A DNA stretch of 64,000 bases from sequence record OP292222.1. One strand, 5' to 3'. The first letter of the stretch is position 1; each line of letters begins with the position of its first letter. A program made the position numbers and the translations under genes. This document shows, piece by piece, positions 18,352-64,000 of this stretch. Below the pieces are notes generated by a model. The model made no database searches, was not told where the DNA came from, and saw only the letters and a list, made by a program, of their open reading frames with translations. This DNA is from Escherichia phage Esco_phi_B-01.

Positions 18352-18714
18352 ATGATTGAAATTACTCTGAAACAACCTGAAGACTTCTTGAAAGTGAAAG
18401 AGACCCTAACTCGTATGGGTATCGCTAATAATAAAGAAAAGAAACTATATCAATCCTGTCACATTTTGCAAAAGCAAGGACGGTATTATATTGTCCACTT
18501 TAAAGAGATGTTGCGTATGGATGGCCGCCAGGTAGATATCGATGGTGAAGACTACCAACGCCGTGATTCCATAGCCCAGCTTCTTAAGGATTGGGGACTT
18601 ATTGATATTGTAGACGATTCTGAATTGTTCGAAATTACTAATAATTTCCGTGTCATTTCATTTAAACAGAAAAATGACTGGGAACTGCTGTCTAAGTATA
18701 CGATTGGTAATTAA
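18352..18714 (+). CDS. regA: translational repressor RegA
   Basis: similarity recalled to T4 RegA; position directly upstream of gene 43. Confidence 0.88.
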   Translation: MIEITLKQPEDFLKVKETLTRMGIANNKEKKLYQSCHILQKQGRYYIVHFKEMLRMDGRQVDIDGEDYQRRDSIAQLLKDWGLIDIVDDSELFEITNNFRVISFKQKNDWELLSKYTIGN

Positions 18715-18722
18715 GTTTAAGC

Positions 18723-18743
18723 AAAGGGACTTTGGTCCCTTTT
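18723..18743 (+). terminator. hairpin + T-run (aagggac-tttg-gtccctt-ttt) after regA; may double as leader structure of gene 43
   Basis: stem-loop with T5. Confidence 0.6.
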
Positions 18744-18802
18744 TGGAGTATAATTATTCATCAACAAACAAAAGACAATCACTCGTCTATAAAGGAAATG
18801 AA

Positions 18803-21514
18803 ATGCAAGAATTCTATTTGACAGTCGAACAAATCGGTGATAATATTCTCGAACGTTACATCGATAAAAATGGTAACGAACGTAGTCGTGAAGTTCCTTA
18901 CAAGCCTACAATGTTTATGCATGCCAACCCAGAGCAAGCCGTAAAATATATTGACATCTACGGTAAGGGCTGTGTTAAGAAAGAATTCGATTCAATGCGC
19001 GATGCTTCTCAGTGGATGAAGCGAATGGACGATATGGGTCTCGAAGCCCTTGGTATGGACGACTACAAATTAGCCTATTTGTCTGATACCTATCGTAAAG
19101 AAATCAAGTATGATTCTTCCAAGATTCGTATTGCTAACTTCGACATCGAGGTAACATCTCCTGATGGATTCCCTGAACCTGCCCAGGCTAAACATCCTAT
19201 CGATGCCATTACTCACTACGACTCGATTGACGATAAATTCTATGTATTCGACCTTTTAGTTTCACCTTATGGTACGGTCGAAGAGTGGTCGATTAAAATC
19301 GCTGAGAAACTCCAAGACGAAGGTGGTGACGAAGTTCCACAAGAAATCATTGACAAAATCGTTTATCTTCCGTTTAATTCTGAAGAAGAAATGATGCTTG
19401 AGTATCTGAATTTCTGGCAACAGAAAACTCCTGTGATTTTGACTGGATGGAACGTTGAATCATTTGACGTGCCATACGTTTATAACCGTCTGAAAAATCT
19501 GTTTGGTGAGAACACTGCTAAGCGATTAAGCCCGCATCGTAAGACTCGTGTTAAAGTTATCGAGAATATGTACGGTGTTCGTGAAATTATTACACTGTTC
19601 GGTATTTCTGTTCTGGATTATATCGACCTTTATAAAAAATTCAGCTTTACTAACCAGCCTTCTTATTCTCTGGATTATGTTTCTGAATATGAATTGAAAG
19701 TAGGTAAGTTGAAATATGATGGTCCTATCTCCAAGTTACGTGAGACAAACCACCAACGATATATTTCCTATAACATTATCGACGTATATCGTGTTGTGCA
19801 GATTGATATGAAACGCCAGTTCATTCTTCTTAGTCTGGACATGGGTTATTATGCTAAGATGCAGATTCAGTCAGTGTTCAGTCCAATTAAGACTTGGGAC
19901 GCTATTATCTTTAATAGCCTTAAAGAACAGGGTAAAGTTATTCCTCAGGCCAAATCGCATGCGGTTCAACCTTATCCAGGTGCTTTCGTTAAGGAACCTA
20001 TTCCTAACGCGTACAAATATGTAATGAGTTTCGACCTTACATCTCTGTACCCAAGTATCATTCGACAAGTGAATATAAGCCCAGAGACCATCGCAGGCAC
20101 ATTCGCCAACGCACCGATACATGAATATATTGCCGGAACTGCTCCGCGTCCTAGCGACACCTACAGTTGCTCTCCTAACGGCATGATGTACTATAAAGAC
20201 CGTGATGGTGTGATTCCTACAGAAATCACGAAGGTGTTCTTACAACGTAAAGAACATAAAGGTTATATGCTCGCAGCTCAACGTAATGGTGAGTTAATTA
20301 AAGAAGCATTAGAAAATCCTAATCCATCTGTTGATAGTCCACTGGATATCGATTATCGTTTCGACTTCTCTGACGAAATCAAAGCCCAGATTAAAAAATT
20401 GTCAGCATCTTCTTTAAAAGAAATGTTGTTCAAAGCCGAACGTACTGAAGTCGCAGGTATGACTGCTCAGATTAACCGTAAGTTGCTTATCAACTCCCTT
20501 TATGGTGCACTTGGTAACGTATGGTTCCGTTACTATGACCTCAGGAACGCAACTGCAATCACATTGTTTGGTCAAATGGCCCTCCAATGGATTGAACGTA
20601 AGGTTAACGAATATCTGAATAGCGTATGTAAGACCGAAAACCAGAAGTTCGTGCTCTATGGTGATACCGACTCCATTTATGTTAAGGCCGATGCAATCAT
20701 CAATAAAGTAGGCGAAGATAAATTCCGTGATACTAACCACTGGGTTGACTTCTTAGATAAATTTGCACGTGAACGTATGGAACCAGCTATTGATGCAGGC
20801 TTCCGTGAGATGTGTGAATACATGAACAATAAACAGCACTTGATGTTCATGGACCGAGAAGCTATCGCAGGTCCTCCACTTGGTTCTAAAGGTCTTGGTG
20901 GATTCTGGACAGGCAAGAAACGTTATGCACTGAACGTTTGGGACATGGAAGGTACTCGTTATGCCGAACCACACTTGAAAATCATGGGTCTCGAAACTCA
21001 GAAATCAAGTACACCTAAAGCGGTTCAGAAAGCACTGAAAGAATGTATCCGTCGTATGCTTCAAGAAGGCGAGGCCTCTTTGCAAGAGTATTTCAAACAG
21101 TTTAATAAGGAATTTAACGAATTAGACTATGTAAGCATTGCTGCAGTATCCAGTGCTAACAACATCGAGAAATATAATGAAGGTGGTTTCCCTGGTTCTA
21201 AATGCCCGTATCACATCAAAGGTTGCTTAGCTTACATGCGTGCTTCTGCTGGTGATTTGACTATGCCTCGTATCGTTGATGGTGAAAAGGTATATGTACT
21301 GCCACTTAAAGAAGGCAACCCGTTCGGTGAAGCTTGTATGGCATGGCCGTCAGGTATTGAACTTCCGATTCAGATTCGTGACCAAGTCCTCCGTTGGATG
21401 GACTACAACGTACTGTTCCAAAAGACCTTTATCAAACCCCTGACCGGTTTTACTGAGTCTGCTAAAATCGACTACGAGAAAAAAGCAACATTATTTGACA
21501 TGTTTGACTTTTAA
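18803..21514 (+). CDS. 43: DNA polymerase gp43 (family B, with 3'-5' exonuclease)
   Basis: Exo I FDIEV, motif A DLTSLYPSII, motif C YGDTDS; N-terminus MQEFYLTVEQIGDNI matches T4/RB69-type gp43; start taken at ATG after SD aagga (track ORF starts upstream). Confidence 0.97.
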   Translation: MQEFYLTVEQIGDNILERYIDKNGNERSREVPYKPTMFMHANPEQAVKYIDIYGKGCVKKEFDSMRDASQWMKRMDDMGLEALGMDDYKLAYLSDTYRKEIKYDSSKIRIANFDIEVTSPDGFPEPAQAKHPIDAITHYDSIDDKFYVFDLLVSPYGTVEEWSIKIAEKLQDEGGDEVPQEIIDKIVYLPFNSEEEMMLEYLNFWQQKTPVILTGWNVESFDVPYVYNRLKNLFGENTAKRLSPHRKTRVKVIENMYGVREIITLFGISVLDYIDLYKKFSFTNQPSYSLDYVSEYELKVGKLKYDGPISKLRETNHQRYISYNIIDVYRVVQIDMKRQFILLSLDMGYYAKMQIQSVFSPIKTWDAIIFNSLKEQGKVIPQAKSHAVQPYPGAFVKEPIPNAYKYVMSFDLTSLYPSIIRQVNISPETIAGTFANAPIHEYIAGTAPRPSDTYSCSPNGMMYYKDRDGVIPTEITKVFLQRKEHKGYMLAAQRNGELIKEALENPNPSVDSPLDIDYRFDFSDEIKAQIKKLSASSLKEMLFKAERTEVAGMTAQINRKLLINSLYGALGNVWFRYYDLRNATAITLFGQMALQWIERKVNEYLNSVCKTENQKFVLYGDTDSIYVKADAIINKVGEDKFRDTNHWVDFLDKFARERMEPAIDAGFREMCEYMNNKQHLMFMDREAIAGPPLGSKGLGGFWTGKKRYALNVWDMEGTRYAEPHLKIMGLETQKSSTPKAVQKALKECIRRMLQEGEASLQEYFKQFNKEFNELDYVSIAAVSSANNIEKYNEGGFPGSKCPYHIKGCLAYMRASAGDLTMPRIVDGEKVYVLPLKEGNPFGEACMAWPSGIELPIQIRDQVLRWMDYNVLFQKTFIKPLTGFTESAKIDYEKKATLFDMFDF

Positions 21515-21516
21515 GT

Positions 21517-21546
21517 GTTTACATACCACATGGAACGTGGTATTAT
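21517..21546 (+). promoter_or_regulatory. early promoter, PeSL-like (GTTTAC ... TATTAT)
   Basis: motif. Confidence 0.55.
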
Positions 21547-21576
21547 CCTTCCTATCAACTACATGAGGAAATTATA

Positions 21577-21813
21577 ATGGAAGCTTTAATCGTTAGTGCT
21601 GGTGTTTTAGGATTCGGTTCTCTGGCTATTATGTTCATTGGTTACTTTTTACCATGGATTCTAGCTCTTTTGCGAGGCACCCGTAGCAATGTCGGAATCT
21701 TCTTCCTTAATCTCTTGTTAGGATGGACGATGATTGGTTGGGTAGTGGCTTTAATCTGGGCCATCGTCGCTGAACGTAAATCAAACGCACAAATCATTAT
21801 CGTTAAACAATGA
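21577..21813 (+). CDS. imm: superinfection immunity membrane protein Imm
   Basis: two hydrophobic helices; position downstream of 43 as in T4. Confidence 0.8.
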   Translation: MEALIVSAGVLGFGSLAIMFIGYFLPWILALLRGTRSNVGIFFLNLLLGWTMIGWVVALIWAIVAERKSNAQIIIVKQ

Positions 21814-21947
21814 AGATAATTATTTTATTTCTTATAATGACTGCCTTTACCGTTTATTGGGCAGTGGCAATTCCTCCAATGATTCCAACATTAATCATAG
21901 GATGGATTATTCTTATAGCACAAATTAAGTATAACTGTTTTAATTGA
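21810..21947 (+). CDS. small hydrophobic peptide (45 aa)
   Basis: ATGA overlap with imm stop; entirely hydrophobic. Confidence 0.35.
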   Translation: MKIIILFLIMTAFTVYWAVAIPPMIPTLIIGWIILIAQIKYNCFN

Positions 21948-21954
21948 GGATATT

Positions 21955-22455
21955 ATGAAAAAGTTAATTATCGCAATGAGTATGCTCCTATCAGGTTGCG
22001 CGGTCCAATACGGTGATGCAGTTTCGGCTGATGAAGTTGGTAAAGCTCGTATTGCAGCTGAACAGAAACAATTCGACGGCGAAATGAAATTCCGTGCCGG
22101 TTCTGGACTTGTGTATACCCGAGCTAATAATCAATGTGGTAATAACTGTGCAAAATATGCTCAAAGGGAAATCGAATTCCAACGTGAACAAGAGTCTAAG
22201 CGTGAAGAGGTACTAGCCAAACACCAGGCAGAAATGAAGCGCCAAGATGATTTGTACAAAAAGCAGAAACTGTATTCTATGTGTGTAAACCATATCAATC
22301 TACAGATTTCTGTCCATGAGGCTCGTTATTACGAAATGCTCGAAACCGAGAGCTTCGATAAAGCTCGTGATTATAAGAAACAAATCAACAAGCTTAAGAC
22401 CAAAGTGCCTGCTGCAGTAGAACAGTGCATGGAATACGGTAAAGATAAGATTTAA
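21955..22455 (+). CDS. predicted lipoprotein (signal peptide with lipobox LLSGC), coiled-coil rich
   Basis: N-terminal MKKLIIAMSMLLSGC. Confidence 0.6.
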   Translation: MKKLIIAMSMLLSGCAVQYGDAVSADEVGKARIAAEQKQFDGEMKFRAGSGLVYTRANNQCGNNCAKYAQREIEFQREQESKREEVLAKHQAEMKRQDDLYKKQKLYSMCVNHINLQISVHEARYYEMLETESFDKARDYKKQINKLKTKVPAAVEQCMEYGKDKI

Positions 22456-22515
22456 GCAATAGAAATTTATTAAAAATAGTGTATAATGTACCTACATTCA
22501 CTTGAGGAACAGATA

Positions 22516-24189
22516 ATGAAAAAGGTTGTTATTTTAGGCGCAGGTCTTGGCTCACGGTTGTATCCAATTACTAACGAAATCCCGAAGGTATTGGTTAACT
22601 ATAAACAACATACGGTATTAAAGCATTTGTATGATTTGTATAGTAACCAATCAGATGAAATTATTCTGGTTATTCACAGCAAATTTAACGACCTCGTTAA
22701 AGGCTATATTAAATCCATTAACATGATTACTGGTGATAAGCCTAAATTCACTATTCGTAACGTTGATGTTGCTAATGGTTCAGCTCATGCAATCGATTGC
22801 ATTGCCGAAGATATCATTGGCCATAATGTCCTGTTTAACTGGTGTGACATCATTCCTATCGGTCATAAAGTTGAATGGGGTAACGACTACTGTTATACCT
22901 ATGGAACTGACTGTCGTTTTACATTTGAAGAACCGTACTTACGTGAAATTGGTACTGGTGGCGGTGTAGTTGGTTTGTATCAGGTAGCCAATTGGACAGG
23001 TTTCGACCGTTCTAATTATGGTGAAGACCTTGCTGATAACCTGGATTCAATGGTCTATTTGACCGAACGTAAACTGGATTTTGTAGTTGATGTCGGTGAC
23101 AAATTGAAACTGGCTAAGGCCCATGAAGAATCTGAAATTAACCGTGAATTTAATAAATTAGAATTCACCGAGAATCTGGCTATTAAAGTACCAACTAACG
23201 AATTAGGTAAAGAAATTCAATCTAAAGAAATCAATTGGTATAATTCTATTGATTCTGAATTCGTTCCTAGCATTGTAGACTTTTCTCCAGGCGAATTCAT
23301 TAAAATGGAACGTATCTTTGGTCGAACCATGGCAGATGCCTACCGGTTTATGTCCAAAGAAACTAAAGTCCTCATGGTTTATAAGGTCATTAGTGCATTA
23401 CGTTCATTTGGTGGAACTATTGATAACCCGTCCGATGAGCAATGGTATTCCGATGTTAAGAAAGAAGTATTGGACAAGGTCCTTATTCGTAATGCTTCTA
23501 TTGCTGGATTGATTGAAGGCTTTGCTCCACAGGGCATTACCCATGTTAACGATTTCAAAGTAGGCGACCCTGAAAAACTTCTTCGCCATGCACTAGAAAT
23601 TCTGTCTGAACATAAAGAACCGTACCAACTTATTCATGGCGACCCGCACTACAGTAATATTATGCTGTCGGACGAAGGTGATATTAAAATCATCGACCCA
23701 CGTGGTTATTTCGGTAATAGTTCTAAAGGCCCTGCGATTTATGATGAAGCTAAGGTGCTTTATTCTATCGATGGCTATGACAAATTTAACTCAGACCCTC
23801 TATGGGGCGGATTAACTCGTAACGGAACTCGTGTATTCGTTGATATCGAAAAGATTATGCCTTTAGACGATATCCCTATGTGCACATTTAAGCACAAGCT
23901 CTGGATTGCTGTTATTTGGATGGCTCTGGCAGGTTACTTTAAGAATAACCCTCTGAAAGCTCTAGGTGCTTATTATAACGGTTTGTACCAACTGAGTGTG
24001 CTGCTGAAGCGGCATCCTCGTAAGCGTAAGCTTATTACGGGTGAATTTGTCGATGAAGTTCGTGACCCTATTACGGCTCAAATTATTACTCGTTGTCCTG
24101 ATAAGTGGGTTTTGCTTGACCAGGAAACTGGTGTAAAATATAAACCTACAGGTTCTACTGAACTCCACAAACAATGGAAGAAAATTTAA
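22516..24189 (+). CDS. bifunctional nucleotidyltransferase / protein-kinase-like phosphotransferase
   Basis: N-terminus ILGAGLGSRLYPIT...PKVLV (sugar-phosphate nucleotidyltransferase G-x-G-x-R signature); C-terminus HGDPHYSNIML ... IKIIDPRGYFG (Brenner HxDxxxxN + downstream D, APH/choline-kinase-like); start at ATG after SD gaggaa. Confidence 0.75.
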   Translation: MKKVVILGAGLGSRLYPITNEIPKVLVNYKQHTVLKHLYDLYSNQSDEIILVIHSKFNDLVKGYIKSINMITGDKPKFTIRNVDVANGSAHAIDCIAEDIIGHNVLFNWCDIIPIGHKVEWGNDYCYTYGTDCRFTFEEPYLREIGTGGGVVGLYQVANWTGFDRSNYGEDLADNLDSMVYLTERKLDFVVDVGDKLKLAKAHEESEINREFNKLEFTENLAIKVPTNELGKEIQSKEINWYNSIDSEFVPSIVDFSPGEFIKMERIFGRTMADAYRFMSKETKVLMVYKVISALRSFGGTIDNPSDEQWYSDVKKEVLDKVLIRNASIAGLIEGFAPQGITHVNDFKVGDPEKLLRHALEILSEHKEPYQLIHGDPHYSNIMLSDEGDIKIIDPRGYFGNSSKGPAIYDEAKVLYSIDGYDKFNSDPLWGGLTRNGTRVFVDIEKIMPLDDIPMCTFKHKLWIAVIWMALAGYFKNNPLKALGAYYNGLYQLSVLLKRHPRKRKLITGEFVDEVRDPITAQIITRCPDKWVLLDQETGVKYKPTGSTELHKQWKKI

Positions 24190-24572
24190 TGTCGTATCGA
24201 GTAGAAAATAAGCCACATTTATGTTTTGATATCGATAACACAATCACGATTTGGAACCATGACCGTGATTATGAGAACTTTAAACCGGACACCGAAATGG
24301 TGTCCATGATTAATAAGCTTTATGATGAAGGGTACGAGATTACATTGTTCACCGCGCGTGGCATGACTTCATGTGGCCCAGGTCGAATCTTGGTTGAAGT
24401 AGTTCCTGCCTTGGTTAAGAACCTTGAAAAAATTGGATTGAAATATCACAATTTGCTTACACATAAGCCGAGTTATACTTTTATCATCGATGACCGAGCA
24501 ATCCGTCCTGACCACTTTAAAGAAATGGTTCGTGAAGGAACTCTTGATGGTTATAAGGCCTATCATCCATGA
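24189..24572 (+). CDS. small HAD-superfamily phosphatase
   Basis: motif I FDIDNTIT (DxDxT), motif II LFTARG, motif IV IIDDR; alternative start 24174. Confidence 0.7.
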   Translation: MSYRVENKPHLCFDIDNTITIWNHDRDYENFKPDTEMVSMINKLYDEGYEITLFTARGMTSCGPGRILVEVVPALVKNLEKIGLKYHNLLTHKPSYTFIIDDRAIRPDHFKEMVREGTLDGYKAYHP

Positions 24573-25105
24573 ATCCAAAAATCATTGTTATAGACGGCCC
24601 GGATAATTCCGGGAAGTCCACTTTAATTAAAAATCTGTTATCCAATAAGAAATACCGCCTTATTGATTTTCCTAAAAAGATTAATGGCAAGTGTATTTCA
24701 TTAGGAACTGATAACGATAAGGCTTTAGTTGAAACTCTGTATAAGTTTTTAGACCCTAATTTCGTTTATATCCTTGACCGTGGTTATCCAAGTAATATTG
24801 TTTACTCAGGATTCCTTCGTGGTGAAATGGACCCTTATGTAGAACTGGAAGATTGGAAAGGGTTTAAATCTGAATTTAACGTTATCGAGGTTATTTTAAC
24901 TCGCAACCCATTAGACGAAGACTTCGAAGACGACCTTATTAAATTAACCGAAGATGAGTTCAACCTAACTATCCGGCAATACGAAACATGTTTTGAAAAC
25001 GTGTTTAAAATCTTAAATCATGACGGCCATAATAATTTGCTTAATGTTGATATGGTAGAATTAAAACGTCTGAACGAATATATTGAAAATAAGGTGAATA
25101 AATGA
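24569..25105 (+). CDS. thymidylate-kinase-like P-loop NMP kinase
   Basis: P-loop IVIDGPDNSGKST and DRGY..S..Y motif resembling Tmk DR(Y/H) region. Confidence 0.65.
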   Translation: MNPKIIVIDGPDNSGKSTLIKNLLSNKKYRLIDFPKKINGKCISLGTDNDKALVETLYKFLDPNFVYILDRGYPSNIVYSGFLRGEMDPYVELEDWKGFKSEFNVIEVILTRNPLDEDFEDDLIKLTEDEFNLTIRQYETCFENVFKILNHDGHNNLLNVDMVELKRLNEYIENKVNK

Positions 25106-25800
25106 AACACATTACCGCTGTTAGTTTTGAAAATGCATTTAAACAAATGAACGAAGAAATCCTGGAAGCTCCACAGTTTGCAGTTGATTCTCGTATCGGA
25201 CGTTGTTATGAAATTGGTTCTGCTTCGGTAGAAGTACTGGATGCAAGCACCTATAAATTCACCGACCCACGTATTAATCGTATTAGTTATGAATATGCCG
25301 AATCCTTTTGGAAATTTATGATTTCTGGTGGTACTGACGCTGCCGAAGCATTTAAGGAATACCCTAATGTTGCTAAGTTCATTGATAAGCCGAAAAGTGA
25401 CGTATTGCCTGCAAACTTCAACACTTTCTATGGACCTCGAATTGTGGCCCAACTCCCAGCCCTACTTAAAGAGCTTAAAGAAAAGGCTAACTCGCGAAGA
25501 GTTGTGTTCCAGATTCTCCAAGAACAAGACCAAGCCCTCCTTGATTCTGACGAATCCTTAGAATATCCGTGTACCGATTCGGTAACGTATTATATTCGTG
25601 ACGGACGTTTGTATGCACACACCCATATGCGTTCACAGAACTGCGCTGTTGTTATGCAGCTGGATTTCTATCTGCAGGGTAAACTGATGGCATTTATTGC
25701 TGAACAGTGTGGTGTCGGTTTAGGTACATATTCCCACACCATGGTAAGTGCACACGTGTTTGAACGCGATTTTGACTACGTCCGAGGTTTCCTGAAATGA
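25102..25800 (+). CDS. 42: deoxycytidylate hydroxymethylase (thymidylate synthase superfamily)
   Basis: SRR, catalytic Cys in PCTDS, YYIRDG, MRSQN, and Asp in QLDFY at the position that confers cytosine specificity in T4 gp42; Glu/Trp in AESFWKF. Confidence 0.82.
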   Translation: MKHITAVSFENAFKQMNEEILEAPQFAVDSRIGRCYEIGSASVEVLDASTYKFTDPRINRISYEYAESFWKFMISGGTDAAEAFKEYPNVAKFIDKPKSDVLPANFNTFYGPRIVAQLPALLKELKEKANSRRVVFQILQEQDQALLDSDESLEYPCTDSVTYYIRDGRLYAHTHMRSQNCAVVMQLDFYLQGKLMAFIAEQCGVGLGTYSHTMVSAHVFERDFDYVRGFLK

Positions 25801-26690
25801 GTTTGTTTATCGTTCCTATTTTCAGTATGCGTAGTTACGAAACAGGTGAATATGCCGTCCTTAAGGACGGCAATTTTCAACTCCATTTAAATCGTGCTCG
25901 TCCAGGTGATTATCTGGCTTATCCTAGAAATTCGAGCGATATCAAAGAATGCATTGAATTATTCCCGGAACTGAATTTCGTACCACTTTGGTATAAAGAA
26001 AATGCTTATGAAACCCGTAAACATTTCTGGTCTGAAAATGAGTTTGTAGTCGATTCACTAATCGAATACTACGATTGCTCAGGACTGGTAACTGATATCA
26101 CCGGTTATGATGGTGCTCACACTGTACAATTCAACTTTAATATCACAATGGACCCTGAAGTTCCTCGTTATTATATCGACGAGTTCATTGATATTGATGT
26201 GGCTTCAGTTGAACGTTCACTTTATACTACAGTCCTGAATCAATGCCAGAAAGACGTCCTGGTGTCACGAGGTGCATCCTCTGATAAGATTTTTGTAGAC
26301 CAAAAGGTAATTAATCCTGCAGTAATTGAGCGTTACTCTGAAGGTCTAGCGCCTATTAAAATTGATGGTATTTTCCATCCATTCCGTATTTCGGATAAGT
26401 GCTATCAATTCGAAAGAGTTGTAGACCAAGCTGCCGCTGAAGGTGCTCGTCTTTATATCACTGACCCGAATGATTCATTTAAGCGTGAAGACTATCGTCC
26501 TGATGTAGAGATTATTAAATTCAAACCGAGTAAGGTTGAATATTATCAAATTCTGAAATCAAGACCACATATCATTTATCATGAGAACCCAGGTTTAGTA
26601 TTCCATCCTGGTCTGGCTGAATTCATTTATTTCGGTGCCAATATTCATTCTGAATACGAAATGCCACGTTATGAGGACGTAGTATGCTAG
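25797..26690 (+). CDS. hypothetical protein (297 aa) occupying the beta-glucosyltransferase slot between 42 and uvsX
   Basis: ORF; no recognisable motif; position only. Confidence 0.55.
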   Translation: MSLFIVPIFSMRSYETGEYAVLKDGNFQLHLNRARPGDYLAYPRNSSDIKECIELFPELNFVPLWYKENAYETRKHFWSENEFVVDSLIEYYDCSGLVTDITGYDGAHTVQFNFNITMDPEVPRYYIDEFIDIDVASVERSLYTTVLNQCQKDVLVSRGASSDKIFVDQKVINPAVIERYSEGLAPIKIDGIFHPFRISDKCYQFERVVDQAAAEGARLYITDPNDSFKREDYRPDVEIIKFKPSKVEYYQILKSRPHIIYHENPGLVFHPGLAEFIYFGANIHSEYEMPRYEDVVC

Positions 26691-26816
26691 GTCCTCTATT
26701 GCTTTTTATAGGTTTGTTATTATTCTCTTTCGGAGCCTTGCTATTACTAGTGTGGCTCGAGAAACGAGAAGTTCGGAAGATAGTCGATAAGGCTATCAAC
26801 CGAGGAATTAAGTAAT
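26685..26816 (+). CDS. small membrane peptide (43 aa)
   Basis: hydrophobic ORF overlapping upstream stop. Confidence 0.35.
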
Positions 26817-26840
26817 GCTGTAGCTGTGAAGTGATATAAT
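26814..26840 (+). promoter_or_regulatory. candidate MotA-dependent middle promoter (aaTGCTgtA box about 12 bp upstream of TATAAT)
   Basis: MotA-box-like motif positioned near -30 relative to -10. Confidence 0.35.
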
Positions 26841-26892
26841 TACCCTATCTTAAAACGTGAGAAAAATATAATGATGCCTATGGAAAAATATA

Positions 26893-28065
26893 ATGTCTGA
26901 TTTAAAATCCCGTTTGATTAAAGCTTCTACTTCTAAAATGACTGCCGACCTGACCAAATCTAAATTGTTTAATGGTCGTGACGAAGTTCCTACTCGTATT
27001 CCTATGCTTAATATTGCATTGGGTGGTGCGTTGAATGCAGGCTTACAATCAGGTTTGACAATCTTTGCTGCACCGTCTAAACACTTTAAAACGTTGTTTG
27101 GATTAACTATGGTTGCGGCATATATGAAGAAATATCCAGACGCAATTTGCTTGTTCTATGACTCTGAATTCGGTGCTTCAGAATCTTATTTCCGTTCAAT
27201 GGGTGTTGACCTGGAACGTGTGGTTCATACGCCAATCCAGTCAGTCGAACAACTGAAGGTTGACATGACCAACCAATTAGAAGAAATTACTCGTGGCGAA
27301 AAGGTTATTATCTTTATCGACTCCATCGGTAACACTGCTTCTAAGAAAGAAACCGAAGATGCTTTGAACGAGAAAGTTGTAGGTGATATGACTCGTGCTA
27401 AGTCTCTGAAATCTCTGTTCCGTATCGTAACACCTTATCTGACTATCAAGGATATTCCTTGCGTAGCAATTAACCATACGGCTATGGAAATTGGTGGAAT
27501 GTATCCTAAAGAGATTATGGGTGGCGGTACTGGTATTCTGTACTCTGCTTCTACCGTATTCTTTATCTCTAAACGTCAGGTTAAAGATGGTACCGAGCTC
27601 ACTGGTTATGACTTCACCCTGAAGGCCGAAAAATCTCGTACTGTTAAAGAGAAATCAACGTTCCCAATTACTGTGAACTTTGAAGGTGGTATCGACCCAT
27701 TTAGTGGTCTGCTCGAAATGGCTACTGATATTGGCTTTGTTGTGAAACCTAAAGCTGGTTGGTATAATCGTGCATTCCTTGACGAAACCACGGGTGAAAT
27801 GGTTCAAGAAGAAAAATCATGGCGTGCTAAAGCTACCGATTGTGTCGAGTTCTGGGGACCGCTGTTTAAACATGCTCCATTCCGTGAAGCAATCGAGAAT
27901 AAGTATAAGCTCGGTGCAATTAATTCTATTAAAGAAGTCGATGATGCGGTGAACGACCTTATTAACTCTCGTGTCTCTAAGAACGTTGCAGTTAAATTGA
28001 GTGGCGACACTCAAAGCGCAGCTGATATCGAAAACGATTTAGAAGAGATGGATTTAGATGACTGA
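26893..28065 (+). CDS. uvsX: recombinase UvsX (RecA-like)
   Basis: near-identity recalled to T4 UvsX N-terminus (MSDLKSRLIKASTSK...) and throughout. Confidence 0.95.
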   Translation: MSDLKSRLIKASTSKMTADLTKSKLFNGRDEVPTRIPMLNIALGGALNAGLQSGLTIFAAPSKHFKTLFGLTMVAAYMKKYPDAICLFYDSEFGASESYFRSMGVDLERVVHTPIQSVEQLKVDMTNQLEEITRGEKVIIFIDSIGNTASKKETEDALNEKVVGDMTRAKSLKSLFRIVTPYLTIKDIPCVAINHTAMEIGGMYPKEIMGGGTGILYSASTVFFISKRQVKDGTELTGYDFTLKAEKSRTVKEKSTFPITVNFEGGIDPFSGLLEMATDIGFVVKPKAGWYNRAFLDETTGEMVQEEKSWRAKATDCVEFWGPLFKHAPFREAIENKYKLGAINSIKEVDDAVNDLINSRVSKNVAVKLSGDTQSAADIENDLEEMDLDD

Positions 28066-57460: not shown

Positions 57461-57736
57461 ATGACTAAAATTGAAATCGTTTCCGAAATTGCTACTATTG
57501 TTTCCATTTTGATTAAAACGGATTGTGAAGACATCATGCAACGCCGTGATGAGTTTATTGCCTTTTTGAATGAGTTAGGTATTCGTAATGAACATGGAAA
57601 GGAACTTAACGGTCTATCTTTTAATAAACTCTTTAAGTCTTTAACTGAAGATGAACGTGATACTCTTATTGAGCAATTTAACGAAGGGTATGAAGATATA
57701 CACCGTTATCTAATGATGTATACCTCCAATTTTTAA
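57461..57736 (+). CDS. asiA: anti-sigma-70 protein AsiA
   Basis: similarity recalled to T4 AsiA (IVSEIATIVSILIK, FIAFLNE.G, LIEQFNEGYE..HRYL.MYT). Confidence 0.9.
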   Translation: MTKIEIVSEIATIVSILIKTDCEDIMQRRDEFIAFLNELGIRNEHGKELNGLSFNKLFKSLTEDERDTLIEQFNEGYEDIHRYLMMYTSNF

Positions 57737-58386
57737 CGAGTTCGACCTAATGTCCTCCCGGCCTGACCACACATAGACGAAAGTCTAGGAAATCCTAAAT
57801 CCGGTTTGGTATCGTACCAATATAATGATATCGAGCCGGCATAGATGTTATCCAAATTAAAAAACGGGCATGAAAACATATACGTGAATTGGGTTTTCTT
57901 CTTTGTAGGAAGGAACACAGTTTCTGTACTTGATTCAAAATAGTTTCCGTTAACTCCCGCCATATATTCTACTGACGTTTTGTCAATTGGAAACCCTCCC
58001 GTATTTTTTGCGTCTACCGTTTCCGGTAATTTACCCTCATAAGCAACCATATCCACAAAATAATTCATGTTGGTTGGTCTAAAAGAATATATTGCTGTGA
58101 AGTCTGCGCCTGAAGAAGAATGCACTATTCGGAGCTGCTCGATAGCCGCAATTTTAAATCTATTGTCCTGGTCTTGTCTAATCATTTCAGTATAAGAGGC
58201 ATAAGTTGTCTCTTTATAAAAGTTTAGAATATACTCGCCTTTATACCAAACTAATGCCATAAAGAACAATAATATTACGACTAGGACCCGGGAAAAAACT
58301 ACTTTCCCGGAAGAAGTATCTTTAAAAATTCTATCAAGAAGTCCAAAAAGTAGGTCTGATAATGAAAATCCTACTTTTGGTTCCAT
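57733..58386 (-). CDS. t: holin (T-type)
   Basis: similarity recalled to T4 holin t (LLFGLLDRIFKD, VVILLFFMA.VWY, YSFRP.N.NYFVD..AYEGKLP); converges on asiA. Confidence 0.9.
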   Translation of the reverse strand: MEPKVGFSLSDLLFGLLDRIFKDTSSGKVVFSRVLVVILLFFMALVWYKGEYILNFYKETTYASYTEMIRQDQDNRFKIAAIEQLRIVHSSSGADFTAIYSFRPTNMNYFVDMVAYEGKLPETVDAKNTGGFPIDKTSVEYMAGVNGNYFESSTETVFLPTKKKTQFTYMFSCPFFNLDNIYAGSISLYWYDTKPDLGFPRLSSMCGQAGRTLGRTR

Positions 58387-58404
58387 ACTTTTCTCCTTTA
58401 AAGA

Positions 58405-58412
58405 TATTTATA
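58405..58412 (-). promoter_or_regulatory. T4-type late promoter TATAAATA (minus strand) upstream of holin gene
   Basis: octamer on minus strand about 20 nt upstream of start, followed by SD aaggag. Confidence 0.5.
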
Positions 58413-58428
58413 ATTTAATACTTTCGTA

Positions 58429-59205
58429 TTATACCCAAGACCCGTAAATAGTACCTGTGGCACCCCATGAAGGACTATTACCACTTACAGCAGGCCCTGC
58501 AGCTCCAGGTGGAGACATGGATACACTGCGTCCATAACCCCAGCCGCCTGCAGCGCCTGCGTCACCGCCCCAACCGCCACCAAACTGTCCGCCGGCATCC
58601 CCGGGACCACCGGCCCCAGCATAACTAGCGTTACCGCCAGGTCTATAACTAGTTGCACCACCTAACCCGAATGGTCTGCCACCGCCACCGCCGCAGGTTG
58701 AGCCAGAAGGATAGCTATTTTGCAATGATGTAGCACCGCCACCACCGCCACCACCACAGATAACACCATAGTTCCATATGCGTAAACGCCCACCAATTTC
58801 ATTATAAATTGCTGTACCGCCTTGTTGGCCTCCACCGCCATTGGTTGCGCCATTACCACCGCGTCCCCACATATGAACCCCACCATGAATATTCAAAGTA
58901 ACGTATTCGTTAGGGATGTCACTATTCATAAAGAACAATGGAAGGTCTCTAGTATAAGATACTAAATCGCCGGTGATATTAAACACAATAGGTGCAGCGC
59001 CGGCTTCAAAACAACGGTCTCTAAACCAATACCCGTTGAAGTTGTGGTCCGCCCCAAGTGTGTGAATTATTTCAACAGACCGACCTATCATATTACTCAT
59101 CCAAAATGGAACACCCATTCTCAATCGTTGGGCTGCTCCTGCCATCCAAGGGTCCCCAGTTTGTACCCTTGCAGACCATCCTACCCACGGTCCTTCAACT
59201 GCCAT
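58429..59205 (-). CDS. 38: gp38 receptor-binding adhesin with glycine-rich motifs
   Basis: N-terminal region recalled as gp38-like ([37 protein letters not shown]); multiple poly-Gly runs; start at ATG with SD ggagg (track start 59217 is TTG). Confidence 0.85.
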
Positions 59206-59236
59206 ATAAACCTCCAAGGGGCCTAGGCCCCTCTTA

Positions 59237-62200
59237 TTATTTTAACAATGATTTAACTAAAGCTTTAAGTTCTTCAATCTCTGATTTCAATTCTGCTATT
59301 TCGGCAGTGTGCTCATTGATTGCAGCTGTATTTAAACCAATTACACCGTTATAGTTCAAACGAAGTAAAGCTTCACCATCAGGGTCACCTTCAACCAATT
59401 CAGGTAAAATAGCTTGAACTTCTTGGGCAATTAAACCAGCATTAGGTTCCCATTTCTGATTACCTTCCTCATCTAGGCCTCGCTTCTGCATATAAGTGTA
59501 ACCGTTAATTTTAGAAAGCTTCTGAGAAGCATTTTCAAATTTAACAAGGTCCTTTTTAACACGAATATCAGAGCGGACATAAACATCGCGGACAAACGTA
59601 GAATAGGCATCACTTTGTTGGACTAAATGCCCATAAGAAATAATAGCTCTTCCTGTTTCGGTCCACAAAGCACCGGTGGTATCCCAAAGACCTTGATGAA
59701 TCTGATAACCGGCTGACCATGAAGCAATATGAACACCATTGGCAACCATATTGATTCGGCCATCGCCACCATGAACTAATCCGGTATCATTATCACCAAT
59801 AACAAGACATGGTCCGGCCCACACAGGGTCACCGCCGCCAGCTGATAATCTTGCTCCAGTTTTAACCATGTTAGGAACAAACAGAGTTCCATTGTGGTGG
59901 AATTCATATATAGCTTGTGGGTCAGAACCGTTTTCTTGGTTACCTACACGAATAATACCTTGCGCCCATGTATTAGTGATGCGTCGCATGCCAAAATCAA
60001 CACCTGATATGTATCCTTCGTTAGTAATACCAGATTTTCCTTTGATAATTGGATAATAACTATCATTACCAACATTACCAAAATCAACAAATACCGGTGC
60101 TTCTTGCTTCCATTGGTTTCCCCAATCGCCAGCCTGGTGGGATGCCCAGACAGAGCCATTAATAAAAAGACGGTCCCTATTAAAATTAAAAGTGGCTGAA
60201 CCTTGTGGGTTTAAAGCAATATCGCCGTCTGCATTAATATTTACGCCTGAATTAGTTTGAAAACTATAAATTGATACAGCATTATCGGCACCGCCGTTAC
60301 CTACATACCAGTTATCAATACCAGCTTTTTGTCCTTTCATATAACCAGATTCGGTTGCAGCACTGTTAATAACAATAGCATCCGAGTTTGCATTCAGCGT
60401 TAAACGCCCGGTCATTGTGTCGCCGCCTTTACCTACACGAGTATTCACCGCTGCGTCAAGGTTAGTAGCACCGCTATACTTGTTCCAAATAGAACCTGCA
60501 ATATTACCATCAGTATTCATGAAAGCTGTACCGGCATATAAGCGGTTCTGAGCCATGAAGTTACCTTCTTTGGTAAAGCGCCAGTATTTTAATCCGGTTG
60601 TAACGCCATCGCCCTGCAAATCACCTTGAGCAACAATTCGGTATTCGCTCGTGGTGCGGTCCATACCTTGAGTAATAGTTACATTAGAAACTGTATTTTT
60701 CTGCTTGGTAATTGGATAGAATGCTTGGGTTGCTGCACCAAGTGTTTGATACAACGGAGCTTTAGTCGTATTCTGGTTGGCATAAGATGCACCATTACCA
60801 GCAGGGAATTCTAATACGCTGTTAGCAATAAAAGAAACTTGGTCAGCCGCTAAATTAGGGATTTTAACTTGACCGGTGTCTAACGTAATACTTAATGGGC
60901 GTAATGGGCCTAATCCGCCACTTTCGCCGGCATTAACATTGGTTGGGATAATATGCAGCTGGTCTTCTGAATTTCGGAAAATAACACCATATTTATCATT
61001 CCAAATACGAAGACCACTAGCAGCGCGGACTTTAATTTCATTGGAAACATACAGATTGCGTTTTAAGGATGTATCTTGACTGACAGACAATCCTTCGACG
61101 ATGTTCATCGTACCGTTTAAATAAGATTCGACTTTACCTGCTGTAGTTCGTTGAATATAGTGCATCCAGCCGGTAGCATCAGATGTTTCCAATACGTTTT
61201 TACGAGAACCACCTACCGTATTAAAAGTGTCACCCCAACCTTTGAGCTCTATATTATCAACTGAACTATATCCTGTGGTACTTCCTTTAAAAATCACAGT
61301 GGAAGCGTTACCACGACCGTCAATATTAACCGAACCACCACGGACTTCAACGTTACCAGGAGTAACCAACAACCCACCATCAGTGTTAACGTTTGTTACA
61401 CCTTTACCACGGAAATAATGGTGGTATTTACCACTCTGATGATAACCTAAAAGAGTCTGTCCATCACCAAAGCCGTTTTTATCATTAGTAGTATTAACAA
61501 TAACTAATGGATAGTTTTGAGCTGTAGGAAGAATTAAATCAGAACCGTTGGTTGAATAACCAGCAACTAACTGTTTAAGGCTTGTAACTTCAGTCGGAGT
61601 TGTAAGTAAAGTATAAGCTCCATTATTAACTGTATGGAACTGGCCGTCTTGTTTCCATTTCAAACCTGTGTTATTGTCACCAAGAGCAATTGAAGCCGTC
61701 CCTAATTCAGAATATCCTTTAGGGCCACCTGGAAGACCTACAGAAATAGAATGACCGGCTTTCAATCCACCGGACCAGGTAAACGACCAAAGATAAGTGT
61801 CTAAGCCATCTCCGGAATACCAGGCTATTCCGTCATTAACATTAACTTCGTGGAAAATACCTGCTCCTACAGCATTTCGCATAACACGGAGGTGGTTAAT
61901 AGCCGTTTCGCTTTCTGCCAATGGAGTGTTATTTGATAATGAAGATATATCGTAATCGCCGGCGGCTTTACCGTCGGTAATAACTTTATTAGTATAAATT
62001 ATTGGAGATTTTACCGATGTTCCACCAGAAATAGATGGAGCATAAAATAAACCGTCACCGTTGAATGCAAAAATATTAGATGTTGAATTAGTGTAATCCT
62101 GAACACGAACATTTAAGATTTGCTTGGTATCCCCAGCACGGTTTTGAGAATAAATTATGCCTCTTTCACGCGCATCAGCCAAATCCTGGAATCGAACGTG

Positions 62201-62557
62201 GGTAGTTCCTGCACCCCGTACAAGAACTTCACCGTTATCTGTCATTAGGCGAGATTTTGCTGTGATATCACCATTTGCTGTTATACTTCCGGATGTCGTA
62301 TAACTACCTGTTTGGGTAAAAGCACCCTTCAGGGCATAATCGCCGGTCTGGTTGTAGTTACCGTTATGAATAACGTTTCCGTCGATATTACCACCTTTAG
62401 CAAAGCCAAGGTCGATAATCGCTCCAGTGTCATCTTTGGTAAATAACAAACGGTCTTTTAAGTTAATAGCCAGCTCGCCTTCAGCCAACTGCGCTGGCGT
62501 AGGACGTACACCAGCTACTTTACTTCTTTTAAATTGTATCTGTTTTAAAGTAGCCAT
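59237..62557 (-). CDS. 37: long tail fiber distal subunit gp37
   Basis: N-terminus [17 protein letters not shown]...[13 protein letters not shown] matches T4 gp37. Confidence 0.93.
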
Positions 62558-62565
62558 AATGCCTC

Positions 62566-63213
62566 TTAATAATAACCAAAATCTTGAATAGAATCTTTTT
62601 GAACAATCTGGTCAAAGCGAGGAACGTGTCCTGCACCAGAGGCCGGATTCCGTGAAATAAAGTTAGGAGCCGCTAGCACTCCATCCATTATTTGCATGTC
62701 AGTATTATTTATTTGGACCTGTTTTGCGTTATCTACTAATGACAATCCAACTTGGGCTTTAGTAGGGGTGTTGCCTGGGCTGAATACGCGGCCTGATTCA
62801 TCATAAACTTGACGGAATAACGAATCACCCATTACAGTAAGACGTTTAGCACCAACTGTTGTATTTGGGTCAAATATCATAAACGGAGTACCATCTTCCG
62901 TTTCATATCCAAAAGCACCTTTAATACGGAAAGAAGCTGTGAACGGGGCTCCGCCGGTTCTTGCTCCTAATTTAATACCATATCCATTAGTATCATTAAA
63001 GGTCAAACCTTTTTCAAAATACACGTTGTTCTGATAATTACCACCGTTAGCTTTTGAAACGAAATCGTTATCAACTGCTTGAGGTTTATTATACTCGGTG
63101 TAAACTTTATATGTTTTGTAAAGAAGGTCGTTTGATACAGGCGTTAAAGGAAAATTACCTTGGTGCCATAATACCGAACCTCCTGCTGTAGAACCTAATT
63201 TTAAATCTGCCAT
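62566..63213 (-). CDS. 36: long tail fiber hinge subunit gp36
   Basis: N-terminus MADLK.GST.GGSV.WHQGNFPL and C-terminus PRFDQIV.KDS.QDFGYY match T4 gp36. Confidence 0.92.
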   Translation of the reverse strand: MADLKLGSTAGGSVLWHQGNFPLTPVSNDLLYKTYKVYTEYNKPQAVDNDFVSKANGGNYQNNVYFEKGLTFNDTNGYGIKLGARTGGAPFTASFRIKGAFGYETEDGTPFMIFDPNTTVGAKRLTVMGDSLFRQVYDESGRVFSPGNTPTKAQVGLSLVDNAKQVQINNTDMQIMDGVLAAPNFISRNPASGAGHVPRFDQIVQKDSIQDFGYY

Positions 63214-63261
63214 TTGAGTTTCCTTTGGGAGTTATAGCCTTTTATATATTTATGGCTGTAG

Positions 63262-63291
63262 AAAATGAAAAAGGAACCCGAAGGTTCCTTA
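63262..63291 (-). terminator. hairpin + T-run on minus strand after gp35 (aaggaacc-ttcg-ggttcctt-tttcatttt)
   Basis: stem-loop with UUCG loop and U-rich tail on minus strand. Confidence 0.55.
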
Positions 63292-64000
63292 ATATTTTTC
63301 TCTAAATTCAGCGACCCAAACCTGACCAGGCTTAGTACCTGTTTTATCGTATAACTGAGCTATGGTAGTACCCATATTCTTAGTTTCGGTACCGAAATTC
63401 ATACGAATACCATTTACACCAAATTCGGCTGATTTAGGTTGAGATTCTGGCTCTGATACTTCACCAAACATCACATTACGTACACCGCCAACTCCATCGG
63501 CCACTGTTTTTCTTGCATACAATGTAAATGTTTCAGTATTAGCAGGAACTTCAATTACCCGCTCAAAAGTCATCCAAGACCCAGCAGGGACATTAGGTGG
63601 AACTTCCATATTAACCGACCCTGTTAAAGCACCTGAGGCATTAAAAAATCTAACAGACATCTGAGAGGTCCCTAAATCTTTTAATTCCTGGTCACACATC
63701 ATTTGGAATTTAAGATAAAAGAATTCTCCAGGCTTCATATTATAATCGGCGCAAGGAGTAGTAGGAGATTCAGTAGGGAAACGTTTTATTTCCTCTCCAT
63801 CATTACTTAGATAAGTGTTTTCATCTTCCACTATTCTTATAGGATACCCGGTGCCGCCAACATCACTGATATCGTCAAAAACGACTTCTAATGGTGTAGA
63901 AACATCTTCAACAAACACCCCATCATTATAAAGGACGTGTTCCATCACTATAGTATTTCTACCGGACACGTAAAAGGCCGAATAAGACGGCTCGAAGCGG
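63289..64000 (-). CDS. 35: long tail fiber proximal connector gp35, 5'-truncated by window edge
   Basis: synteny 35-36-37-38; frame open to position 64000. Confidence 0.75.
   Translation of the reverse strand, partial: RFEPSYSAFYVSGRNTIVMEHVLYNDGVFVEDVSTPLEVVFDDISDVGGTGYPIRIVEDENTYLSNDGEEIKRFPTESPTTPCADYNMKPGEFFYLKFQMMCDQELKDLGTSQMSVRFFNASGALTGSVNMEVPPNVPAGSWMTFERVIEVPANTETFTLYARKTVADGVGGVRNVMFGEVSEPESQPKSAEFGVNGIRMNFGTETKNMGTTIAQLYDKTGTKPGQVWVAEFREKY

Follow-up and report, generated by a model that had tools for sequence, protein, structure and literature searches.

A kinase-nucleotidyltransferase fusion in the Dhakavirus replication block and its probable place in cytosine arabinosylation

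The fusion gene and its operon

The sequence analyzed here, called the window, is a 64,000-nucleotide stretch of Escherichia phage Esco_phi_B-01 DNA (OP292222.1). It is 98.5% identical to Escherichia phage JS98, a member of the genus Dhakavirus. The gene under study lies between the DNA polymerase gene (18650-21514) and uvsX (26893-28065). On its 5' side are imm (21577-21813) and then a lipoprotein-like ORF. The gene under study opens a series of five in which neighboring starts and stops overlap by 4-16 nt, and the five form a translationally coupled operon. The features of the operon are listed below.

22504..22508, + strand: Shine-Dalgarno sequence GAGGA, read from the sequence, 7 nt 5' of the ATG at 22516
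22516..24189, + strand: fusion enzyme gene, an uninterrupted ORF of 1674 nt (557 codons plus stop); very probably the gene for an AfhE-type bifunctional enzyme orthologous to RB69 gp52:53, Bas47_0151 and DLP3 gp82 (PHROG 4098, Bas47 collinearity)
24174..24572, + strand: HAD-family phosphatase, 132 aa, homolog of AfhF and RB69 gp51 (DxDxT motif FDIDNT; 61% identity to Bas47_0150)
24569..25105, + strand: P-loop nucleotide kinase, 178 aa, RB69 gp45-like (PHROG 761; 38% identity to Bas47_0145; ATGA overlap with the preceding gene)
25102..25800, + strand: thymidylate-synthase-fold enzyme, 232 aa, homolog of 5-hydroxy-dCMP synthase of the RB69 gp48 type (PF00303; 80% identity to Bas47_0147; ATGA overlap)
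25797..26690, + strand: putative DNA arabinosyltransferase 1, 297 aa, homolog of RB69 gp46:47 (68% identity to Bas47_0146; PHROG 3891; ATGA overlap)

An earlier note on this DNA had described a single 557-aa fusion protein, and the ORF at 22516-24189 is confirmed. Translation from an alternative in-frame ATG, at 22486, would lengthen the protein by 10 residues to 567 aa. The start at 22516 is preferred because it follows the GAGGA sequence, because homologs of the fusion protein begin at an equivalent MKK.VIL, and because the ATG at 22486 falls within a TATAAT hexamer (22482-22487). The hexamer itself is a hint only, since a scan of 21400-27000 for promoters and terminators found no excess of sites over shuffled sequence.

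The annotated cluster of Bas47 (Mosigvirus AlbertHofmann) was used as a tblastn query against the window. All five genes of the operon were recovered, with identities of 43% for the fusion protein, 61% for the phosphatase, 80% for the ThyA-like protein, 68% for the glycosyltransferase and 38% for the P-loop kinase. The phosphatase gene overlaps the fusion gene by 16 nt, and its product has TIGR01689-like and HAD-IIIA matches; the phosphatase role of AfhF/RB69 gp51-type HAD proteins is taken from PMC13326640. The glycosyltransferase had no match in Pfam, and an arabinosyltransferase role has been proposed for proteins of the RB69 gp46:47 type (PMC13326640). The ThyA-like protein is only 25% identical to T4 gp42, over partial length, and the cluster was therefore grouped with the 5-hydroxy-dCMP synthase type and not with the T4 hydroxymethylase. 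The corresponding interval of T4 holds imm, gene 42, beta-gt and segA instead; T4 therefore lacks the fusion, as the earlier note had suspected.

RefSeq and PHROG 1238 label the gene at 24174-24572 as 'phosphoheptose isomerase'. This label was rejected: the product is a HAD phosphatase with a DxDxT motif, and the mistaken label has found its way into many T4-like genomes. One record names this gene 'capsule biosynthesis protein'.

Several other features of the window were recorded. The ORF at 21955-22455 encodes 166 aa, and its first residues, MKKLIIAMSMLLSGC, are those of a lipoprotein signal peptide that contains a lipobox. The ORF is a member of PHROG 1754, stands between imm and the modification operon and lies outside the Bas47 cluster; with imm beside it, it may have a surface or superinfection-exclusion function. 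A small ORF of about 40 aa (21825-21944) shares 55% identity with the 47-aa Bas47_0152, whose gene separates those of the isomerase and the fusion enzyme in Bas47; the ORF has been kept across genera despite the loss of the isomerase. Far downstream, at about 58 kb, the sign of the GC skew reverses and the long ORFs pass to the minus strand (one of them, 59237-62557, encodes 1106 aa; window ~57700-64000), which fits a boundary with the tail-fiber late genes (JS98 genes 37, 36 and 35).

Domains and catalytic residues of the fusion protein

Three regions were recognized in the fusion protein.

22516..23130, + strand: N-terminal sugar-1-phosphate nucleotidyltransferase domain, residues ~1-205 (G-x-G-x-R loop 8-14, K24, D111, D192-x-G-D195)
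23131..24030, + strand: kinase domain of the eukaryotic-like/choline-kinase/APH fold, residues ~206-505 (K224, E238, H374-G-D376-x4-N381, D394)
24031..24186, + strand: C-terminal extension of ~52 aa, residues 506-557 (mostly short beta-strands in the model, pLDDT 82-92)

The earlier note had read a G-x-G-x-R nucleotidyltransferase signature at the N-terminus and, at the C-terminus, the HxDxxxxN motif and metal-binding Asp of a kinase. Residues 6-27 are ILGAGLGSRLYPIT...PKVLV, residues 374-384 are HGDPHYSNIML, and residues 390-400 are IKIIDPRGYFG. Both Pfam domains that the note had proposed to look for were found above their gathering cutoffs. NTP_transferase (PF00483) matches residues 3-100 with 33.9 bits against a cutoff of 21.2, and APH (PF01636) matches residues 346-417 with 26.0 bits against a cutoff of 23.2.

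Catalytic residues were then followed through an alignment of 44 homologs that reaches down to ~30% identity. The nucleotidyltransferase positions G10, R14, K24, D111 and D192-x-G194-D195 are invariant in the 44 sequences, as are the kinase positions K224, E238, H374-G-D376, N381 and D394. None of the catalytic residues is lost, and the conservation of these motifs is far beyond chance. An AlphaFold2 model built on the same alignment is confident, with a mean pLDDT of 93.4 and a pTM of 0.90. The N-terminal domain thus combines the G-x-G-x-R loop, the Lys of the P-K motif and the Asp residues that bind metal or sugar phosphate with a Rossmann-like fold. The C-terminal domain has the Brenner H-x-D-x4-N motif, the metal-binding Asp, the beta3 Lys, the alphaC Glu and the bilobal fold of APH and choline kinases. 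These results confirm the observation of the earlier note in all its details and support its domain interpretation.

A profile made from the 44 homologs was matched against the PDB. HddC (2.7e-12), LicC (8e-11) and GDP-mannose pyrophosphorylases (~1e-9) were found, and no PDB entry was nearer in sequence to the N-terminal domain than HddC. A solved structure of AfhE was sought by sequence and by profile in the same way and none was found; the best matches, LicC and HddC, cover the N-terminal domain only. Structural neighbors of the fusion protein include LicC, MurU, LicA, glucosamine kinase, maltokinase and APH, and they are nearly the same as those given in PMC13326640 for RB69 gp52:53 and DLP3 gp82. 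Within the alignment, the T4-like sequences and a few others keep residues 506-557, which are missing from many more distant homologs. The consensus of this extension in the T4-like phages is T..P.KW.L.D.ET..Y.

Homologs and the reduced Dhakavirus cluster

PHROG 4098 matches the fusion protein over residues 1-557 (4.9e-268). The protein is collinear from end to end with Bas47_0151 (43%, E 1e-141), and end-to-end matches were also found with proteins of Serratia phage 92A1 (47%) and Shewanella phage Thanatos-1 (43%). Homologs occur in 367 phage records, of which 366/367 match at least 80% of the query. Identity to homologs from the phages with supporting experiments is only 41-50%.

Distant full-length homologs with 26-28% identity were observed in jumbo phages outside the Straboviridae (Vibrio phages D486 and 6E35.1a, Sphingomonas phage PAU and Chryseobacterium phage MA9V-1), and therefore the kinase-nucleotidyltransferase fusion reaches beyond the T4-like phages. 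Three metagenomic relatives of 922-946 aa (P0067, P0081 and P0097) carry HAD, SIS (GutQ-type isomerase), nucleotidyltransferase and kinase regions in one chain. These chains support the enzyme linkage independently of the literature. On a 23.7-kb contig that does not resemble a T4-like genome, the gene for P0067 has several glycosyltransferase genes (GT11, GT2, GT25 and GT1-like) as neighbors.

The exact protein is present in NCBI. Its 90% cluster has 59 members, every one of which bears the name 'hypothetical protein' or 'Nucleotidyl transferase domain-containing protein', and the majority of the 367 phage homologs go under labels such as 'hypothetical', 'GlmU' and 'UDP-glucose dehydrogenase'. 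None of the NCBIfam equivalog models for MurU, GalU, RmlA, HddC and GlmU reaches its cutoff, the best score being 37.9 bits against cutoffs of 250-600; the MurU model gives 23.6 bits against 370. The labels GlmU, UDP-glucose dehydrogenase, nucleotide-sugar epimerase, mannose-1-P guanylyltransferase and capsule biosynthesis protein were rejected on such scores, which are far under the cutoffs.

Three members of the larger pathway were sought by tblastn, namely the phosphosugar (arabinose-5-P) isomerase of Bas47, the U32-like 389-aa enzyme (RB69 gp50) and a second arabinosyltransferase of the RB69 ORF003c type. At E<1 none gave a match, either in the window or in the remaining JS98 sequence (NC_010105, 48000-156500). 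The two together cover one complete Dhakavirus genome, the part outside the window being that of JS98 and not of Esco_phi_B-01. What Dhakavirus has is therefore a minimal, five-gene version of the cytosine-arabinosylation cluster of RB69 and Bas47. The phage isomerase is a feature of the RB69/DLP3 pathway, not of the fusion protein itself.

E. coli makes arabinose 5-phosphate by means of KdsD and GutQ, so that a phage isomerase is dispensable, and the Dhakavirus pathway presumably depends on these two host enzymes. By analogy with Thanatos, which has a single arabinosyltransferase and a single arabinose per base (PMC13326640), Dhakavirus DNA probably carries one arabinose per base.

The Dhakavirus clade keeps 156/191 (82%) of the positions of the fusion protein that are at least 90% conserved in its T4-like relatives. 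The changes are mostly conservative, with exceptions that include E85V, Y91H, F116G, A226P, C326N and N378H; E85V and Y91H are near the nucleotide-binding loop, and N378H is in the catalytic loop of the kinase. Literature searches on the DNA chemistry or enzyme biochemistry of Dhakavirus and JS98 found nothing specific.

Proposed pathway and related systems

The protein family is already described, the enzyme is already known, and Dhakaviruses are explicitly named as carriers of the cluster. Thomas et al. 2018 (PMC6024577) proposed RB69 ORF53_52c, in the polymerase-uvsX module, as a candidate for UDP-arabinose synthesis, and the GenBank record of Bas47 names Bas47_0151 a 'putative enzyme involved in UDP-arabinose biosynthesis'. 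In Lee et al. 2026 (PMC13326640), RB69 gp52:53 and DLP3 gp82 are modeled as nucleotidyltransferase plus kinase domains, and Dhakaviruses are counted among the genera with a syntenic cluster. As PMC13326640 reports the work of He et al. [quoted passage not shown]

The features of the AfhE family were found here: nucleotidyltransferase and kinase in a single chain, full-length homology, an adjacent AfhF-type phosphatase, and linked homologs of the synthase and the arabinosyltransferase. The fusion protein is very probably the Dhakavirus ortholog of AfhE, gp52:53 and gp82, supplying UDP-D-arabinofuranose for the glycosylation of 5-hydroxycytosine. This reading draws on the folds of the two domains, the full set of catalytic residues, orthology with cluster genes of arabinosyl-5hoC phages and the structure of the operon. 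The tie to HY126 AfhE runs through PMC13326640, which equates AfhE with RB69 gp52:53, and the enzymatic activities and the order of steps come from the literature.

If the Dhakavirus enzyme has the substrates of AfhE, as we infer, the C-terminal choline-kinase/APH-fold domain would transfer a phosphate from ATP to C1 of D-arabinose 5-phosphate, and arabinose 1,5-bisphosphate would be formed. The HAD phosphatase from the overlapping 3' gene would convert this to arabinose 1-phosphate, and the N-terminal RmlA/MurU-type domain would then join arabinose 1-phosphate and UTP to form UDP-arabinofuranose and pyrophosphate. The glycosyltransferase encoded at 25797-26690 would move the arabinose onto 5-hydroxycytosine in phage DNA, the base having presumably entered the DNA by way of the ThyA-like 5-hydroxy-dCMP synthase (25102-25800). 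Host KdsD and GutQ are the presumed source of arabinose 5-phosphate because no arabinose-5-P isomerase was found in the JS98-type genome.

The same family and product could be reached in another order, with the HAD phosphatase acting first on arabinose 5-phosphate to give arabinose, the kinase then acting at C1, and UDP-arabinose being formed last. The two fused domains would then catalyze consecutive steps, as when AmgK acts on MurNAc or another anomeric kinase on its sugar. Table 1 of PMC13326640 is worded in this sense, labeling the C-terminal domain of the RB69 and DLP3 proteins 'Phosphorylates Ara to Araf1p' and the phosphatase 'dephosphorylates Araf5p to Ara'. The structural neighbors glucosamine kinase, maltokinase and APH use non-phosphorylated sugars, and the logic is that of the earlier note. 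However, the N-terminal domain is closest to HddC of the heptose pathway, in which the order is kinase, phosphatase, nucleotidyltransferase. The phage HAD enzyme has GmhB-like matches and resembles the GmhB-type bisphosphate phosphatases (PMC13326640), and the text of the same paper has He et al. showing AfhE converting Araf5P to Araf1,5P, followed by dephosphorylation by AfhF. We therefore consider the phosphatase-first order very unlikely.

We consider it unlikely that the JS98-type cluster, found in Dhakavirus and a related clade of Klebsiella and Proteus phages and carrying a diverged fusion enzyme, makes something different from the product of RB69. If it did, the difference would be at least a strictly mono-arabinosylated 5-hydroxycytosine dependent on host KdsD and GutQ, and at most a different sugar or nucleotide carrier in JS98-type phages. 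That the enzyme has diverged to another sugar phosphate or NTP, and that the DNA modification is not arabinosyl-5-hydroxycytosine at all, seems highly improbable. The identity of ~43% to the characterized clades leaves room for such a change, as do the non-conservative substitutions at conserved positions, the failure to find the phage arabinose-5-P isomerase, U32-like enzyme and second glycosyltransferase in the window and the rest of JS98, and a literature search in which no Dhakavirus DNA chemistry was found. Yet the 82% of family-conserved positions that are kept include all the catalytic ones, the partner proteins are near those of Bas47 (ThyA-like 80%, glycosyltransferase 68%, phosphatase 61%), E. 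coli KdsD and GutQ make the phage isomerase dispensable, and Thanatos likewise has a single arabinosyltransferase (PMC13326640).

A 'moron' that serves the host envelope, whether through LicA/LicC-like phosphocholine, AmgK/MurU-like MurNAc recycling or capsule/LPS precursors, and that has nothing to do with phage DNA, has next to no likelihood: the database labels 'GlmU', 'capsule biosynthesis protein' and 'mannose-1-phosphate guanyltransferase', the presence of LicC, MurU and LicA among the structural neighbors and the weak match of the 3' HAD gene to a capsule-biosynthesis phosphatase family would suit it, but all the NCBIfam equivalog scores are far under cutoff (MurU 23.6 bits against 370), the gene is translationally coupled to the ThyA-like enzyme and the glycosyltransferase within the DNA-replication block, and experiments tie homologous clusters to DNA arabinosylation (PMC13326640).

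On the preferred reading, that of an AfhE ortholog, the activated sugar would serve the arabosyl-5-hydroxycytosine hypermodification, which protects phage genomes against restriction enzymes and CRISPR and is in turn a target of type IV systems. The biology of arabinosylation is already published for RB69-like and other phages, and the window adds no new principle. The practical value of the finding is in the annotation of the Dhakavirus cluster and its phage homologs. Some Dhakaviruses serve as therapeutic coliphages, and the reduced pathway of the genus predicts dependence on the host isomerases and one sugar per base.

The closest known systems are that of AfhE, from E. coli phage HY126, and those of its predicted equivalents in RB69, Bas47 and Acinetobacter phage DLP3. 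The proteins share an N-terminal nucleotidyltransferase and a C-terminal ChoK/APH-type kinase, a length of ~555-565 aa, end-to-end collinearity and a C-terminal tail. The clusters share the location between polymerase and uvsX, an overlapping 3' HAD phosphatase and linked homologs of 5-hydroxy-dCMP synthase and DNA arabinosyltransferase. The identity to the Mosigvirus copies is only ~43%, and the pathway is not identical: unlike the RB69/Bas47 cluster, that of Dhakavirus is without the isomerase, the U32-like enzyme (RB69 gp50) and the ORF003c-type second arabinosyltransferase. The P-loop kinase gene stands between the phosphatase and ThyA-like genes in Dhakavirus, whereas it follows the glycosyltransferase in the RB69/Bas47-type cluster.

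The analogy that the earlier note drew with LicA/LicC and AmgK/MurU is structurally apt. The pneumococcal choline kinase and CTP:phosphocholine cytidylyltransferase (LicA/LicC), like the MurNAc anomeric kinase and MurNAc-1-P uridylyltransferase (AmgK/MurU), are separate proteins and carry out consecutive steps that start from an unphosphorylated substrate. In contrast, the phage domains are fused, the reported substrate carries its phosphate from the outset, and a phosphatase step comes between. Sequence likeness of the fusion protein to both pairs is confined to motifs.

In the NDP-heptose pathway, GmhA is followed by the HldE or HddA kinase, then by GmhB and finally by the HldE or HddC nucleotidyltransferase. 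The two pathways are alike in having a SIS isomerase, an anomeric kinase that acts on a sugar phosphate, a HAD phosphatase that removes the distal phosphate and a nucleotidyltransferase; they differ in that the phage sugar is a pentose and not a heptose. E. coli HldE is also a kinase-nucleotidyltransferase fusion whose two activities are split by a phosphatase step. Its kinase has the ribokinase fold and its transferase the cytidylyltransferase fold, and therefore HldE and the phage fusions would have arisen independently. This parallel, together with HddC as the best PDB match, supports the enzyme linkage independently of the literature.
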